Below, one piece after another: positions 8,879-55,038 of a stretch of DNA of 64,000 bases (position 1 is its first letter; every line of letters starts with the position of its first letter). The notes below the pieces were generated by a model that did no database searches, was not told the DNA's origin, and was given only the letters and a program-made list of their open reading frames with translations. Origin of the DNA: an uncultured Gammaproteobacteria bacterium (GTDB taxonomy: Bacteria > Patescibacteriota > Patescibacteriia > Magasanikbacterales > GWA2-37-8); assembly GCA_964511375.1 (NCBI GenBank), contig CAZEEW010000003.1:10987-74986 (forward strand). Reading direction: 5' to 3'. Made by a program: the position numbers and the translations under genes.

Positions 8879-8907
8879 TTGACAAACAGGATGATTCATA
8901 GTAATAT
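8879..8907 (+). promoter_or_regulatory. sigma70-like promoter of rplJ-rplL
   Basis: TTGACA-17-TAATAT. Confidence 0.5.
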
Positions 8908-9043
8908 CCATTCACCATAGACAGCAGGCGGTTTGAGAAATCAAGCCTTAATTACCTGCCGAGGTGCAAAAAAGCCTTTATTAAAGGCTTCGGAGGTCGA
9001 TTTGTACTAAAAATTAGGTCTGTGGCTAACACAGATTTTTTGT
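8908..9043 (+). promoter_or_regulatory. structured 5' leader of rplJ (possible L10 autoregulatory leader)
   Basis: 135-nt untranslated leader with paired segments: cagcaggcgg/cctgccgagg and aaagccttt/aaaggcttc. Confidence 0.3.
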
Positions 9044-9568
9044 ATGGCAAAATCCAAACAACAAAAAGTAGAAACCATAGATAGCTTAGGCCAAGGTTTA
9101 AAATCCGCCAAAGCAGTGGTTTTTGCCAACTTCCAAGGTTTAAAAGTTAGCGAGGCCGAGGAATTACGCAAACTCTGCCGCAAGAACGACATCCAGGTTT
9201 TAGCTGCTAAGAAAACCCTTTTAAAGCGTGCTTTAACTGATGCTGGTCTTGAAGGTGCTGATCCAAGCGTTTTCCAAGGTGGTGTTGCGACTTTTATGGG
9301 CACGGGTGATGAAGTAGCTCCTGCGAAAGTAGTAAGCGACTTTGCTAAAACCCACGAGATCGTCTCCGTATTCGGTGGCGTACTCGAAGGAAAATTCATT
9401 GATGCCGCCATGGTAAAAAGCCTGGCTAGTCTACCTTCTAAGACTGAACTCTTGGCTAAGGTAGTTGGCTCAATTAATGCCCCAGTTTCTGGCTTTGTTA
9501 ATGTCTTAGCTGGTAACCTACGTAACTTGGTGAGTGTTCTTAATAACATTAAAGAAGCGAAAGCTTAA
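9044..9568 (+). CDS. rplJ: 50S ribosomal protein L10
   Basis: The N-terminal region is clearly L10, and gene order with rplL supports it. Confidence 0.9.
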   Translation: MAKSKQQKVETIDSLGQGLKSAKAVVFANFQGLKVSEAEELRKLCRKNDIQVLAAKKTLLKRALTDAGLEGADPSVFQGGVATFMGTGDEVAPAKVVSDFAKTHEIVSVFGGVLEGKFIDAAMVKSLASLPSKTELLAKVVGSINAPVSGFVNVLAGNLRNLVSVLNNIKEAKA

Positions 9569-17434: not shown

Positions 17435-17466
17435 AAAACCCAGCGCTAAGTGCACTGGGTTTTATT
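17435..17466. terminator. bidirectional terminator (mreB / islet-1 gene)
   Basis: aaaacccag-N11-ctgggtttt followed by a T-run. Confidence 0.6.
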
Positions 17467-17482
17467 GTGTTCCGTGACTTTA

Positions 17483-17554
17483 CGCTTCGCAGTTGATCTG
17501 AAATAGCAACTGTTACTATCTCAGACCGACACTGCGAAGCGCCGGCTATTTCAG
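17483..17554 (-). repeat. interleaved inverted repeats (pseudoknot-like or alternative hairpins) in the 3' region of the islet-1 gene
   Basis: cgcttcgcagt (17483-93) pairs with actgcgaagcg (17531-41). ctgaaatagc (17498-507) pairs with gctatttcag (17545-54). The order is A-B-A'-B'. B' overlaps the stop codon. Confidence 0.5.
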
Positions 17555-17769
17555 GATTTCTTCTTGAGACGGCGCTGGATGCGCCACAGGTAGGTGTATC
17601 CGATGGCGAGCAGGAGTCCCAGGACGATCTCGGTGAACGCCTCGACCGGCGTGTCTTTGATGAAGAGGCGGATGAGCCCCGTGACCACCATGATGTAGCC
17701 CAGGATCACGAACACCGGGACGAATGTATCGAAGAGATTCAGGATCATCATCTTGAACTGCTGAAACAT
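17551..17769 (-). CDS. 72-aa two-TM small membrane protein encoded in GC-rich islet 1
   Basis: GC3 near 90% against an AT-rich host. The RBS is gggaggc, 7 nt before the ATG. Promoter TTGACA-17-TATACT. Confidence 0.6.
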   Translation of the reverse strand: MFQQFKMMILNLFDTFVPVFVILGYIMVVTGLIRLFIKDTPVEAFTEIVLGLLLAIGYTYLWRIQRRLKKKS

Positions 17770-17819
17770 TTCTTTGCCTCCCTGCGCCGCGCAGGCGCTC
17801 CGTTGTCAGGGAACCAGTG

Positions 17820-32107: not shown

Positions 32108-32205
32108 TTGAATTGGAGGGTAGACAATGTGGAATGGACCATATTGCTTTTTTATTTACATTATGTTTAAATTTTTCTATCTTCAACCACTAGAAGGGGG
32201 TGGTT

Positions 32206-32421
32206 GTGAAAGATGAAGCCCGGCTTCCGAACCTCGGAAGCGAAGCGGCTCGGTTTTTCCTAGCCTTGGGGAAGGTTGCTGATATCCCAGTCAGCACAGC
32301 GGTCTCCACGGCCGGGGAAGAGAGCGCCTACTCTTTCGGGCATTGGAAGTGCCCGATTTGTGGGCGCAAGAACTTCTCGGTAGGCACGTGCCCGCAGTGC
32401 GGCACGCGACGGCCCCTCTGA
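32206..32421 (+). CDS. 71-aa zinc-ribbon protein encoded in GC-rich islet 2
   Basis: CPICG-x11-CPQCG. GC-rich codons. GTG start after aaggggg. Flanked by the 11-bp direct repeat gaagggggtgg. Confidence 0.5.
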   Translation: MKDEARLPNLGSEAARFFLALGKVADIPVSTAVSTAGEESAYSFGHWKCPICGRKNFSVGTCPQCGTRRPL

Positions 32422-32586
32422 AGGGGGTGGGGAGAGATCATGAAGCTGCCTTACTAGGGTGGGCGAGCACTCAGCAGGACTCCGCTCAACCACCTGTTGG
32501 GTTTCTGTGTATTAGGAACCCAGCAGGGGGAGATGGGCGGAGTTTTGTGTTGACTAAAAATATATTTTAGTATTTAATGGTCTGGT

Positions 32587-46555: not shown

Positions 46556-46581
46556 ATATCCACCAAAGTGGATATTTTTAG
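46556..46581 (+). terminator. terminator after 45126-46541 gene
   Basis: atatccac-caaa-gtggatat plus a T-run. Confidence 0.6.
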
Positions 46582-46589
46582 TAAACACA

Positions 46590-46646
46590 CTTCTCGGTAC
46601 TCTAGAAAATACATAGACATATATTCTCTAGGGCACGACCGAGAAG
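46590..46646. repeat. GC-clamped long hairpin with AT-rich interior at 3' end of islet-3 gene
   Basis: Outer stem cttctcggt/accgagaag (9 bp) enclosing about 39 nt. The internal ctctag direct repeat is AT-rich. Confidence 0.45.
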
Positions 46647-46693
46647 CGGATGCACCCCTGGCGTGGGGCGCCATGGCAGGGTGTTCGGGGGGG

Positions 46694-46843
46694 CTAGCGG
46701 ACGATCCAGCAGATGAAACGCTGGTCGTCCGGGTTGGAGTAACAGGGCTTCAGGTCCGCCTTGAGGGCGAACCAGGAGATGACGAGAAATGTCAGGACAG
46801 CGAACGCGAGGCCCGCCGCCCTCTTCCAAGTGAACGCCGCCAC
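46694..46843 (-). CDS. 49-aa single-TM small protein encoded in GC-rich islet 3 (GTG start)
   Basis: Not in the ORF track. RBS aggagg, 5 nt before the GTG. GC3 about 87%. Sequence MAAFTWKRAAGLAFAVLTFLVISWFALKADLKPCYSNPDDQRFICWIVR. Confidence 0.45.
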   Translation of the reverse strand: MAAFTWKRAAGLAFAVLTFLVISWFALKADLKPCYSNPDDQRFICWIVR

Positions 46844-47102
46844 CGGAACCTCCTACTGATTTTTCTCAACTGCAACGGGAAGAGCGAGCCCTTCGTCTCT
46901 TCCGGCAGATGCAGTCGTTCCTGTATCTTCTCCGGCCGCTTCGGTAGAAGCCGCCAGATGATTCCCATGAGAACCGCGATCCCGATACCCAACCCCATTC
47001 TTACCTCCTGAGTTGGGTTGGTGCGCCTAGACGTGAACTTCACGCCAGACAACGACTAAACATACTCTTTTTGTCTGGTTTTGTCAATGTGATTAATGTG
47101 CA

Positions 47103-50064: not shown

Positions 50065-50288
50065 AATAAAAAATCTCTGTCCAAGCAGAGAAAAAAGATC
50101 TAAAAACAGAGTTCCTGCTCGGGATTTAAAGATATTTGAAGACCGGACTTGTCCCGAATTTGCTCGGGCCTTACCGTTGCGGCACAGTGGAGGAATTACA
50201 CCTCACTTCCACAAATATCTTTTTAAATTGTTAGTATAGAGAGATTAACATTTAGGAAACGGACTGTCAAACAGGAGTTATCAACAGG

Positions 50289-53984: not shown

Positions 53985-54530
53985 CTAAGATAAGCGCTGG
54001 CGAAGATACGTGCCGATGTTTTTAAACTTGTCTAAAATGTGCTTAGCTTCAGGATTGTAGTTTTTTAGTACTTTAGGGCCCATCTCTAATTTATGGATTT
54101 TTTCCAATAACTTAAGAGGGTGTAAACGTTTGAAATTGCCGGTTTCTACAAGGGTAATTTTGTTTCTCACATTACTCGGAAAATTTTTTGTAATCTCTTC
54201 ATTAATGGGCTGAGGACAAAAAAGATAAATGTTATTAAAGTCGTGCTTACCAGTATAGCTTTTTAACTTTGGTTGAAGTAGCTTATAGTATTCTTGTTTA
54301 ACAATGTGTACTTTGTCTTCATATACCGCTCCCGATCGAATTGTTTTACCAGATGTCCTGACTTTGAAATGGCCTTCTTTATCTGAATAGTCCGGTTTGT
54401 TGGCTTTAATATATTCCACTTCGTTTATTTCTCCGTCCTTAGCGATTAGCAGCCGAGCGTCATTTGTTCCTGAAACAACAATCAGAGACGTTTCTTTTTG
54501 GAATTTTGGCAACCCTTTTTTGATCATCAT
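53985..54530 (-). CDS. hypothetical protein
   Basis: 181-aa ORF with no recognisable motif. Confidence 0.4.
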   Translation of the reverse strand: MMIKKGLPKFQKETSLIVVSGTNDARLLIAKDGEINEVEYIKANKPDYSDKEGHFKVRTSGKTIRSGAVYEDKVHIVKQEYYKLLQPKLKSYTGKHDFNNIYLFCPQPINEEITKNFPSNVRNKITLVETGNFKRLHPLKLLEKIHKLEMGPKVLKNYNPEAKHILDKFKNIGTYLRQRLS

Positions 54531-54614
54531 ACTTTTGTTAGTTTAAAAGTTATATCTTTATCTTCTCGGATCGTGCATATACTTGTCAAAGGGACAAAAC
54601 TTTTTAATACAAAA

Positions 54615-54677
54615 ACCACCCCGAAAACCCTCCTCCCTCTGAACCTAAACTTTAGGTCAAGAGGGAGAAGCGGGGTG
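54615..54677. repeat. long nested imperfect hairpin (three stacked stems) in islet 4
   Basis: Three stacked stems: ccaccccg/cggggtgg, ctccctct/agagggag and acctaa/ttaggt. Confidence 0.5.
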
Positions 54678-54756
54678 GCTTCTGCGAAAGGAGCGATGAG
54701 GCCGCCCGGCACGGTGCCGGGGGCGGGGATAGGGGACAGTGCGGCTTAGACGCCGG

Positions 54757-54939
54757 CTAGCGGATCAGGAGCGCCGAGCGGCGCCGGGCGGGTTCCTGGT
54801 GGCGGCCGTTGGCGGCCGGGGGCGGGACCTCGGGAACGTCGGTGCGCGGCTCCGAGGCCGCGCGCCGGATCTGCTCGGAGAGCTGCTGCAGGTGGGGGGA
54901 TCCGATCCCCCGGGTCTTCTTGTAGACGCGCTGCTTCAT
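54757..54939 (-). CDS. 60-aa basic, Pro/Arg-rich hydrophilic protein encoded in GC-rich islet 4
   Basis: GC3 about 95%. RBS ggtggag, 7 nt before the ATG. The hairpin ccctgc-N6-gcaggg lies immediately upstream. Other frames here are also open because of composition. Confidence 0.4.
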   Translation of the reverse strand: MKQRVYKKTRGIGSPHLQQLSEQIRRAASEPRTDVPEVPPPAANGRHQEPARRRSALLIR

Positions 54940-55038
54940 GATCTATCTCCACCCTGCGGGCTTGCAGGGCCCGAATATTAAAGCACACTGGAGGGAAAAA
55001 ATCAAGATTGGGCATATTCGGTTGTTAATAAGTTAGAT

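Follow-up and report, generated by a model that had tools for sequence, protein, structure and literature searches.

A GC-rich islet in a Patescibacteria genome retains its predicted promoter and RNA hairpins around a small open reading frame of unconserved sequence

Genomes of CPR/Patescibacteria are small and AT-rich, and their annotation is poor. Stem-loops that stabilize mRNAs from the 5' terminus include ompA hp1, the Bacillus aprE leader, and the cryIIIA STAB-SD. Small RNAs (sRNAs) with C-rich seeds, such as those of the RsaE/RoxS type, may be derived from 3' UTRs or have dual functions, and SgrS and RNAIII are coding sRNAs; C-rich seeds pair with G-rich Shine-Dalgarno (SD) regions. Genes of genomes with about 70% GC have a characteristic distribution of GC over the three codon positions (GC1/2/3), of the order of 0.74/0.52/0.95. 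Phage morons are independent promoter-ORF-terminator units of deviant GC content (PMC3594210). GC-rich intergenic islands of AT-rich genomes have been used, in what is known as GC-IGR analysis, to find noncoding RNAs and short ORFs (PMC6429828). In the literature, we found no description of islets in Patescibacteria such as the one analyzed here.

The window, by which we mean the whole 64,000-nucleotide stretch of DNA that was analyzed, contains at least four GC-rich islets, at about 17.6, 32.3, 46.7, and 54.8 kb (islets 1 to 4), which are scattered and form no array. Islet 4 is a discrete unit of ~424 nt (Table 1) with 68% GC in a Patescibacteria genome of ~40% GC; the GC content is 0.68 across positions 54621 to 54980, compared with 0.40 for the whole window. 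It is bounded on one side by the divergent cupredoxin promoter and on the other by the -35 box of a downstream gene, which is called baeRF-like because of its weak matches to the Pfam bacterial archaeo-eukaryotic release-factor families. The neighbors identified by Pfam and PHROGs profile search are FolD, cupredoxin, and glycosyltransferases. When the four islets were compared, no common terminal repeats or sequence were found, except for a match of 22 of 25 positions in the SD-ATG region of islets 2 and 4. On balance, we read islet 4 as a stand-alone, clade-specific micro-gene with a hairpin at each end of its mRNA.

Table 1. Predicted features of islet 4 and their positions in the window
Feature	Position	Strand	Remarks
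Whole islet	54598..55021	-	Insertion/deletion unit; ends set against the empty site of L017
Predicted sigma-70-type promoter	54977..55005	-	Read from sequence; boxes and spacing kept in L002 and L011
H1, 5' hairpin	54951..54970	-	6 perfect pairs plus closing G.U, 6-nt loop; at or near the predicted mRNA 5' end
SD, GGUGGAG	54947..54953	-	Core GGAG (54950-54947) 7 nt before the ATG, unpaired in the predicted fold
ORF, 60 aa, ATG	54757..54939	-	MKQRVYKKTRGIGSPHLQQLSEQIRRAASEPRTDVPEVPPPAANGRHQEPARRRSALLIR
C-rich tract, 3' UTR	54719..54735	-	CCCCUAUCCCCGCCCCC; predicted single-stranded, unpaired in the consensus fold
H2, 3'-UTR hairpin	54701..54724	-	9 pairs; 27/27 cells paired; compensatory double changes in 4/9 pairs
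H3, three-tier hairpin plus U-tract	54609..54685	-	33 pairs, 77 nt; read as intrinsic terminator and 3'-decay block

L002 and the L011/L009/L001 lineage have orthologs of the islet, again next to the cupredoxin gene, and these were recovered from several independent assemblies. A genome scan with FolD gave two useful relatives, and a metagenome scan with the conserved hairpin arms described below gave two true loci, both of the known lineage. Two other candidates from the metagenome scan, L007 and L010, were discarded after reading as chance matches. No match was obtained in a genome scan with the adjacent 181-aa protein or in a viral scan with the hairpin arms. In L017, a third relative, the site is empty, with a 164-nt spacer and no islet. 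L017 is the sister of L011 (88% identity between their cupredoxins), and the islet is also present in the two outgroups, the window and L002. This indicates that the common ancestor had the islet and that it was then deleted in L017. Comparison of the filled and empty sites reveals microhomology only, with no terminal inverted repeat and no target-site duplication. In the more distant cupredoxin relatives L018 to L021, the islet is absent and the gene order is different. The gene downstream of the islet also varies among lineages, being either baeRF-like or peroxiredoxin, and the empty-site relative retains the baeRF-like gene. Because of this variation, because L017 keeps the gene without the islet, and because a separate promoter follows H3, we rejected the possibility that the islet is a leader or attenuator of that gene.

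The islet flanks are homologous among lineages, with 70 to 80% identity (z = 12 to 28 versus shuffles). At the four-fold synonymous sites of FolD, identity between the window and each of the other two lineages is 0.38 to 0.39 versus 0.25 expected, which is nearly saturated, so the conservation of the flanks means that they are constrained. Within the islet, the predicted 3' UTR is better conserved than the putative ORF: the 3' UTR is 77 to 80% identical (z = 21 to 28), while the ORFs of the three lineages have no alignable similarity in any frame and are no closer to one another than codon-shuffled controls (z about 0). On the micro-gene reading, selection is visible on the predicted promoter, H1, the SD and ATG, the C-rich tract, H2, H3, GC-richness, and basic composition, and not on peptide sequence.

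The predicted promoter has a -35 box TTGATT (55005-55000), a 17-nt spacer, and an extended -10 box TGcTTTAAT (54985-54977). The corresponding sequences are TTGCGT-17-TGcTTTAAT in L002 and TTGATT-17-TGcTTAAAT in L011. A consensus promoter scan did not flag the islet promoter because position 2 of its -10 box is T. Transcription would be expected to start at or near H1, which has the sequence CCCTGC (54969-54964)-AAGCCC-GCAGGG (54957-54952) and adjoins the SD. The first-pass annotation had described a perfect hairpin abutting the ribosome-binding site in the same layout as in islet 1, and both observations are borne out, since in islet 1 CCTGCG-CGG-CGCAGG adjoins GAGG at 17772-17795. The folding energy of H1 is unexceptional for its GC-rich context (z = +0.1 for the 51-nt 5' region, with 97/200 shuffles folding equally well). 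H1 is kept in L011, and the L002 version, CTCGC-N6-GCGAG, has 2 compensatory pair changes. Support for H1 therefore comes from conservation in two other lineages and from two compensatory changes, not from energy. Like the 5' stabilizer stem-loops, H1 is short, is located at the predicted 5' end, and has a strong SD directly after it; unlike them, it is not unusually stable for its composition. In L002 and L011, the SD and ATG occupy the same position. The 5' folds of these two lineages have differing, nonhomologous pairings near the start codon, and the extra pairing may cover the start codon, which weakens the case for a translational logic common to all three lineages.

The earlier proposal of a minus-strand ORF with an SD and an ATG is correct, with GGAG 7 nt upstream of a 60-aa frame. 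The predicted product has a pI of 11.65, no hydrophobic segment, and one predicted helix (residues 15 to 28), the rest being coil; AlphaFold2 gave a pLDDT of 69 and a pTM of 0.29. Predicted peptides of this ORF include GIGSPHLQQLSEQIR and TDVPEVPPPAANGR. ORFs at the same position in the three lineages are 60, 63, and 74 aa long, and their products are uniformly basic and hydrophilic (pI 11.3 to 11.7; GRAVY -1.1 to -1.3), although so basic a composition is expected from any GC-rich frame. No homolog of the 60-aa product was found among 5.8 billion proteins or 1.84 billion representatives, and Pfam and PHROGs searches with all candidate frames plus the 63-aa and 74-aa same-position products matched zero families.

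All six frames are essentially open over about 54765-54930, as the first-pass annotation had noticed, and this is because the local GC content is about 70 to 80%. That annotation took the coding assignment to be uncertain. It is less so than claimed: the period-3 GC signal is strong and falls in the SD/ATG frame itself in all three lineages (chi-square test, p = 6e-7 for the window and 2e-6 and 3e-3 for the other two). The GC1/2/3 values of the window ORF are 0.74/0.52/0.95, compared with a GC3 of about 0.33 in host genes, and GC3 is 0.83 to 0.95 across the three lineages. These data are consistent with translation of the ORF. An open frame of ~60 codons is cheap at such GC, however, and given also that the ORFs have no similarity to one another, the peptide may not matter, or the ORF may be a replacement.

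The period-3 signal also bears on the suggestion that the locus is noncoding, in the sense of a structured RNA with a fortuitous ORF. The six open frames, the lack of ORF sequence conservation, and the very stable hairpins are consistent with this, as is the enrichment of structured RNAs in GC-rich intergenic regions of AT-rich genomes (PMC6429828). However, with period-3 GC in the very frame that has the SD and ATG, with the position of both conserved, and with no Rfam match, a purely noncoding locus is highly improbable. Nor is excess structure in the ORF body consistent across lineages: the ORF bodies of the window (z -1.3) and L002 (z -0.3) are no more structured than codon shuffles, and the value for the third lineage is -4.1. 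The islet produces the same signal as the islands of GC-IGR analysis, and the rules of that pipeline would file it as a short ORF with RNA-structure potential. GC-IGR is a detection criterion, however, and defines no family, and the GC excess of the islet is mainly at codon third positions.

Downstream of the ORF, the C-rich tract has counterparts in L002 (CACCUCCCCCACCUCC) and L011 (CACCCACCCCCACCCCC). H3 folds with a dG of -52.2 kcal/mol (z -7.7), with 0/200 shuffles as stable, and ranks in the top three for stability among the 12,784 80-nt windows of the 64 kb. The cell and pair counts given for H2 refer to the three lineages. The basal arms of H3 (24 nt and 22 nt) are invariant across lineages despite the near saturation of synonymous sites, and its apical stem has 5 compensatory pairs. 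With covariation resting on three orthologs only, double changes occur in 9/42 pairs versus 3.3 +/- 1.5 in shuffles (0/500 reach 9); slid controls have at most 1 double change, and 97.6% of cells are paired in the true alignment. The conservation and covariation of these hairpins indicate that they are selected RNA structures. The first-pass annotation had looked to homologs for compensatory changes in the stems and for ORF conservation; the stems do compensate, and the ORF sequence is unconserved.

Like an intrinsic terminator or 3' stabilizing hairpin, H3 is a stable GC-rich stem-loop with a U-tract immediately 3' on the transcribed strand and an upstream A-rich segment that pairs into the tract, and it lies where the transcription unit would end, just before the promoter of the next gene. 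The sequence directly after H3 is UUUUUGUAUU, which is partly paired with H3. A U-run follows H3 in all three lineages (GGGGUGGUUUUUGUAUU in the window, CUUUUGCUUAUU in L002, and UUUUUGCUUU in L011), and there is no U-tract on the plus strand at H3. Folding of H3 is 14 kcal/mol better on the mRNA-sense strand (-52.2 versus -37.8 kcal/mol for the antisense strand) because of its G.U pairs. A simple terminator scan did not call H3 because it has internal loops. Unlike the terminators of neighboring host genes, which have 7- to 9-bp stems, H3 has its pairs stacked in three tiers, and a second conserved hairpin, H2, lies upstream of it. Based on these properties, H3 is a predicted intrinsic terminator and probably a 3' stabilizer as well. 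The earlier description of three tiers holds, while the extent given there (54615-54677) is too short. That annotation also favored a structured RNA over a plain terminator. H3 is indeed selected and covarying and goes well beyond the host stems, but its U-tract in all lineages and its terminator position make a plain terminator plus stabilizer the simplest role for it. Nothing was found that points to a processing or immunity element, which had been suggested as well.

Since conservation is concentrated in the 3' UTR and the ORF is unalignable, the RNA rather than the peptide could be the functional part. The C-rich tract, H2, and H3 would then act in cis or as an sRNA derived from the 3' UTR, perhaps by pairing with G-rich SD regions, with the ORF as a translated spacer that is free in sequence. 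We regard this dual-function arrangement as a real if minor possibility. It would account for the invariant arms of H3, for the covariation in H2 and H3, and for the conservation of a C-rich tract that is predicted to be unpaired; in the window, this tract can pair 11/12 with the SD region of the unit itself (read by eye, unscored). That pairing is not kept in L002, however, and neither an internal promoter nor a processing site is evident. Known 3'-UTR-derived or dual-function sRNAs likewise combine 3'-concentrated conservation, an unpaired C-rich tract before the terminator, and an ORF on the same transcript, but the islet shows no sequence similarity to them and no sign of processing or of targets. 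Rfam gave no match to the islet at gathering thresholds; with the limit relaxed to E <= 10, the strongest matches scored 11.7 to 19.2 bits, to miRNA or leader models with thresholds of 58.7 to 100 bits. Covariance model R1 recovered the orthologous copies and nothing else, either in the window or in related loci. Finally, the period-3 GC and the conserved SD and ATG indicate that ribosomes read, or once read, the upstream part.

The absence of ORF similarity could also mean that the ORF has been exchanged. The flanks would serve as recombination arms, and a GC-rich ORF would be swapped in each lineage from a GC-rich donor or cassette pool, as in a phage moron. Replacement of the ORF by GC-rich DNA would account for both the GC3 of 0.95 and the unalignable ORFs, and the GC1/2/3 values fit genes of ~70% GC genomes. 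In addition, the ORFs are no more alike than codon-shuffled controls, and FolD is fairly close between L002 and L011 (four-fold sites 0.69 identical). The islet resembles a moron (PMC3594210) in having its own predicted promoter and factor-independent terminator, in having GC content unlike that of its neighbors, and in being present or absent as a discrete block. It differs from one in lying among chromosomal housekeeping genes and not in a prophage, in being vertically inherited in one clade with no copy found in any other genome, and in having an ORF that diverges beyond recognition between conserved UTRs. No donor homolog was found in the protein collections searched or in phage or plasmid records: tblastn and blastn against both of these record sets gave chance-level GC-rich matches only, and the best tblastn matches in a phage and viral-contig search had E = 4 to 5, none of them significant. 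Between L002 and L011, divergence is much greater in the adjacent cupredoxin gene (0.48 identity at four-fold sites) than in FolD, so the ORF could have diverged to saturation in situ. Moreover, the islet 3 ORFs of the window and L001 are recognizably homologous (49% aa identity) and still GC-rich, which indicates that GC-richness persists without replacement. The islet also has neither a recombinase nor terminal inverted repeats, and it lacks target-site duplications and attC motifs. Taken together, these observations make exchange of the ORF quite unlikely.

Other mobile elements fit no better. Unlike mobile palindromic repeats (REP, MITE, RPE, and IS200/IS605-derived PATE), the islet has no terminal inverted repeats or target-site duplication and occurs only once in the window even when up to 3 mismatches are allowed. 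Unlike integron gene cassettes, it has neither the R'' (RYYYAAC) nor the R' (GTTRRRY) box of attC on either strand of 54595-54700, and the islets are dispersed.

With its small ORF, its intergenic location, and structure at its 5' and 3' ends, the islet is also reminiscent of type I toxin-antitoxin systems (hok/sok, fst, txpA/ratA, and aapA/isoA), in which a stable, highly structured mRNA for a small toxic peptide is under antisense RNA control. In addition, there are several islets in this genome, and the products of islets 1 and 3 are small transmembrane peptides whose Kyte-Doolittle hydropathy, taken over 19 residues (KD19), peaks at 2.44 and 2.25, respectively. In contrast, the maximum KD19 values of the three islet 4 products are -0.57, 0.28, and -0.21, and these hydrophilic, basic products have no hydrophobic segment. 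In the window, the predicted fold leaves the SD core unpaired and thus not sequestered. No antitoxin RNA gene was found: a search for an antisense promoter gave one weak plus-strand match (9/12, 54506-54533), which is unconserved and is located in the neighboring gene, and H3 lacks a U-tract on that strand. A toxin-antitoxin-like module is therefore very unlikely.

In the micro-gene that we favor, the conserved sigma-70-type promoter would produce an mRNA of about 360 nt that begins with H1, followed by the strong SD. By analogy with the 5' stabilizers, H1 may hinder 5'-end-dependent decay while leaving the SD free. Ribosomes would read the 60-codon, extremely GC3-rich frame to produce a very basic, mostly disordered small protein. 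Transcription would continue through the C-rich spacer and H2 and end at H3 and its U-tract. H3 would insulate the downstream baeRF-like gene from islet transcription and, as a long helix containing G.U pairs, may cap the 3' end against exonucleases. This account leaves unexplained why GC3 is 0.83 to 0.95 when that of the host is about 0.33. If the islet is merely a stable mRNA for a disposable basic peptide, it provides a useful annotation rule and little beyond that.

A bolder reading, to which we attach little probability, is that the four islets represent an undescribed class specific to this CPR clade. An RNA chassis (promoter, 5' hairpin, C-rich tract, and giant sense-favored, G.U-rich hairpins) would be kept, while the enclosed small ORF would change, by diversification or exchange, at a rate above that of neutral sites, and recombination, GC-biased conversion, or selection on the RNA would actively hold GC3 at about 0.9 versus 0.33. 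If this is true, the islets would be a hypervariable small-protein or dual-function-RNA system, possibly for the dealings of an episymbiont with its host or with phages. The puzzle that the islets pose is what holds them GC-rich in a 40% GC genome and whether the RNA or the peptide is the functional part.

An exact look-up with the ORF or the neighboring protein returned no recorded contig. Gene callers place a spurious protein of 173 to 187 aa, in the wrong frame, over islet 4, and a query with the 187-aa version for further islets returned only itself. In one related lineage, assemblies repeatedly break within the GC-rich ORF of the islet. Wrong-frame gene calls and assembly breaks of this kind imply that such micro-genes are systematically missed. 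One of the contigs that is broken in the islet 4 ORF also ends in the islet 3 ortholog.

The window has a GC content of ~40% and contains four short islands of 59 to 68% GC (islets 1 to 4, at ~17.6, 32.3, 46.7, and 54.8 kb), each closed by a giant composite hairpin. Islet 4 lies among housekeeping genes (folD, a baeRF-like gene, a cupredoxin gene, and glycosyltransferase genes). The FolD query recovered two relatives at 82% identity, one of which is labelled "Patescibacteria group bacterium," so the source organism is a bacterium of the candidate phyla radiation (CPR). The features discussed are listed in the table.

Positions of islet features in the window and in related contigs
Feature	Position	Strand	Remarks
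Islet 4 unit	~54598-55021	-	Promoter through terminator, between two host promoters; limits from L017 empty-site comparison
Islet 4 predicted promoter		-	TTGATT-17-TGcTTTAAT; boxes and spacing kept in relatives, sequences slightly different
Islet 4 5' hairpin (H1)	54969-54952	-	CCCTGC-N6-GCAGGG
Islet 4 ORF	54939-54757	-	ATG to TAG, 60 codons
Islet 4 long 3' hairpin (H3)	54685-54609	-	33 pairs
Giant hairpins, islets 1 to 4	17465-17560; 32455-32560; 46575-46660; 54605-54690	-; +; -; -	
baeRF-like gene (weak match)	Directly downstream of islet 4	Same orientation as islet 4	
Cupredoxin gene	Adjoins islet 4	Divergent	
Islet 1 ORF	17551-17769	-	72 aa, two-TM-like peptide
Islet 2 ORF	32200-32421	+	73 aa, CxxC...CxxC, zinc-ribbon-like
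Islet 3	46570-47070		Orthologues: L001 8230-8611, L002 14570-15000
Islet 3 ORFs	46694-46843; about 46795-46998	-	Two overlapping small ORFs, membrane or basic
Spurious 173- to 187-aa calls	L011 2408-2971; L002 6810-7331 (= L022 1946-2467)	-; + (-)	Public gene calls

The first-pass annotation had described a minus-strand ORF with a Shine-Dalgarno (SD) site and an ATG, and a perfect hairpin at the ribosome-binding site. Both are present: GGAG lies 7 nt 5' of the ATG, and the inverted repeat continues directly into the SD. All six frames are indeed open over the ORF, as expected from a local GC content of ~70 to 80%. The three-tier hairpin also exists, although its size had been understated at 63 nt. 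It folds at -52.2 kcal/mol (z = -7.7; no shuffled sequence folds equally well), and in a scan of the 64 kb the 80-nt window over it (-47.1 kcal/mol) ranks 3rd of 12,784, the two windows above it likewise lying inside GC-rich islets. The 80-nt windows over the hairpins of islets 2, 4, and 1 rank 1st, 3rd, and 4th, while the islet 3 hairpin is weaker and absent from the top list; the islet 1 hairpin lacks its own U-tract. A U-run follows H3 in every lineage, and the hairpin lies just upstream of the -35 box of the next gene. The folding energy of H1 is ordinary for such GC-rich sequence (z = +0.1), and its credibility comes from comparative data, including two compensatory changes in the L002 lineage.

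The comparative results for islet 4 rest on three orthologues. The 85 nt 5' of the ATG are 70 to 75% identical between lineages (z = 12 to 26), and the 3' UTR (135 to 147 nt) is 77 to 80% identical (z = 21 to 28). Four-fold synonymous sites of folD, compared between the window and the L002 and L011 lineages, are 0.38 to 0.39 identical (0.25 expected) and thus near saturation, which indicates that the flanks are under purifying selection. Alignments among the ORFs of the three lineages are no better than those of codon-shuffled controls (z = -0.8 to +0.9), none of 27 frame-by-frame comparisons exceeds z = 2.1, and BLASTP of the window product against the L002 product gives no match at E ≤ 100. 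Judging from these alignments, the peptide sequence appears unconstrained. The ORFs may either have diverged in place or have been replaced.

In the 3'-UTR alignment of the three lineages, 97.6% of pair cells hold standard pairs, and 9 of 42 pairs show compensatory double changes, four of them in H2 (a small hairpin of 9 pairs) and the other five in H3's apical stem. Column shuffles give 3.3 ± 1.5 such pairs (0 of 500 reach 9), and slid controls give at most 1. At the base of H3, the two arms (24 and 22 nt) do not vary. Folded as the mRNA-sense strand, H3 gains 14 kcal/mol of stability from conserved G.U pairs, and in islets 1 to 3 the giant 3' hairpins, with many G.U pairs, show the same asymmetry (12 to 24 kcal/mol). 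This bias indicates that they are RNA structures of sense transcripts.

An SD and ATG occur at the same position 3' of H1 in all three lineages. In this frame, GC1/GC2/GC3 values are 0.74/0.52/0.95, 0.72/0.56/0.95, and 0.64/0.57/0.83 (period-3 chi-square P = 6e-7, 2e-6, and 3e-3), a periodicity typical of genes in high-GC genomes; host genes have a GC3 of ~0.33. On the opposite strand, the frame with the same third position has GC1 below GC2 and only a short ORF, so the minus strand is the sense strand. The ORF is therefore likely to be translated. Its products (60, 63, and 74 aa; pI 11.3 to 11.7; GRAVY -1.1 to -1.3) contain no hydrophobic segment, and their basic composition is that expected from any GC-rich frame. 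AlphaFold2 predicts one helix (residues 15 to 28) in the window product and coil elsewhere (pTM 0.29).

In islet 4, composition is under selection, as is the RNA chassis. The first-pass annotation considered the long hairpin more typical of a small structured RNA or a processing or immunity element than of a plain terminator. That interpretation is partly supported: the structures are real and selected, though translation of the ORF is probable and the large hairpin reads foremost as a terminator. An RNA-centred, dual-function locus would account for the selected structures and seems unlikely to us; we lean slightly toward a micro-gene with an armoured mRNA. Such a gene would be transcribed from the conserved promoter into an mRNA of ~360 nt. 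By analogy with ompA- and aprE-type 5' stabilisers, H1, at or near the 5' end beside a free SD, might protect against 5'-end-dependent decay. The GC-rich frame would be translated, and H3, from its anatomy, would terminate transcription, insulate the downstream gene, and cap the 3' end.

The islet occupies the same slot beside the cupredoxin gene in L002 and in the lineage of L011, L012, L009, L001, and L008. The L011-lineage copy is identical across several independent assemblies, which excludes an assembly artefact. In L017, the spacer is 164 nt long and the islet is absent. Its cupredoxin is 88% identical to that of L011 and 70 to 77% identical to the others. L017 thus falls within the islet-bearing lineages, which is most simply explained by a single ancestral islet that was later cleanly deleted in L017. 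Comparison of filled and empty sites reveals no terminal inverted repeat or target-site duplication flanking islet 4. Between L002 and L011, four-fold-site identity is 0.69 in folD and 0.48 in the cupredoxin gene, ~1.2 to 1.9 kb away. This mismatch, together with the absence of the baeRF-like gene from L002, points to a mosaic genealogy around the islet.

Had the ORF come recently from a high-GC donor, its GC3 of 0.95 would be accounted for, but no donor homologue was found in the databases searched. Islet 3 also argues against it. It keeps its position in L001 and L002, with a promoter (TTGACA-17-TATACT), a 5' hairpin, a pair of small ORFs, and a long 3' hairpin with a conserved base and variable apex. 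Homology between its small membrane ORFs in the window and those in L001 is still evident (the first, ORF-a, is 49% identical, and in L002 barely recognisable), with GC3 of 0.64 to 0.88 across the same near-saturated divergence. GC-richness has thus been maintained, not simply inherited from a recent import, perhaps through selection on RNA or a biased recombination process. In the window, the ORFs of islets 1 and 3 have a GC3 of 0.70 to 0.88, and that of islet 2 has 0.69.

Islet 4 has no Rfam match, its products match no Pfam or PHROG family and no protein homologue in the databases searched, and no phage, plasmid, or viral match exceeds chance. A covariance model of its 3' UTR recovers orthologous copies only, and the small ORFs of islets 1, 2, and 3 have no significant family match. 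In relatives, a wrong-frame ORF is called across the islet through promoter and terminator while the true small ORF is uncalled, so protein databases probably lack the true small ORFs of CPR relatives. L011-lineage contigs from different samples break at varied points in the islet ORF (5' ends of L013 to L016, both ends of L001, and L008); L001 runs from islet 4 to islet 3. The breaks probably arise where coverage falls off at extreme local GC, and this would hide such loci in MAGs.

In architecture, islet 4 is closest to phage morons, which carry a promoter and terminator of their own and show deviant GC (PMC3594210), as it does. Unlike them, it lies outside any prophage, and horizontal spread was not detected. 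Functionally it would resemble an ordinary small gene that carries an intrinsic terminator and stabilising end hairpins. Under the GC-IGR scheme for AT-rich genomes (PMC6429828) it would classify as a short ORF that also has RNA structure. It does not fit a type I toxin-antitoxin system (no hydrophobic peptide, SD not sequestered, antisense gene not found), an integron attC site (no R boxes), and a mobile palindromic repeat (single copy, without terminal repeats or duplication). Islet 4, which matched no known family, stands out for its pattern of conserved UTRs around a variable ORF and for its sustained GC3.

Islet 2 positions 32425-32449 (+) match the SD-ATG-AAG region of islet 4 (54930-54954, -) at 22 of 25 nt, preceded by a small hairpin, CCCCT-CTGA-AGGGG, with a frame that ends after MKLPY; this may be a decayed paralogue of the islet 4 gene. 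In L018, L019, and L020, a GC-rich palindrome of ~80 nt (414-562, -) lies within a tsaD-like gene, and the Pfam TsaD match of this gene is divided into two parts. For the 176-nt region the folding energy is -74.5 kcal/mol. It matches the islet 3'-UTR model weakly (26 bits) and could represent a palindromic insertion within a gene, as known from Rickettsia. Elsewhere in the window, an AdoCbl riboswitch (50078-50234, -; 64.7 bits) and a ribosomal protein L10 leader (8897-9051, +; 51 bits) both exceed their Rfam gathering thresholds.
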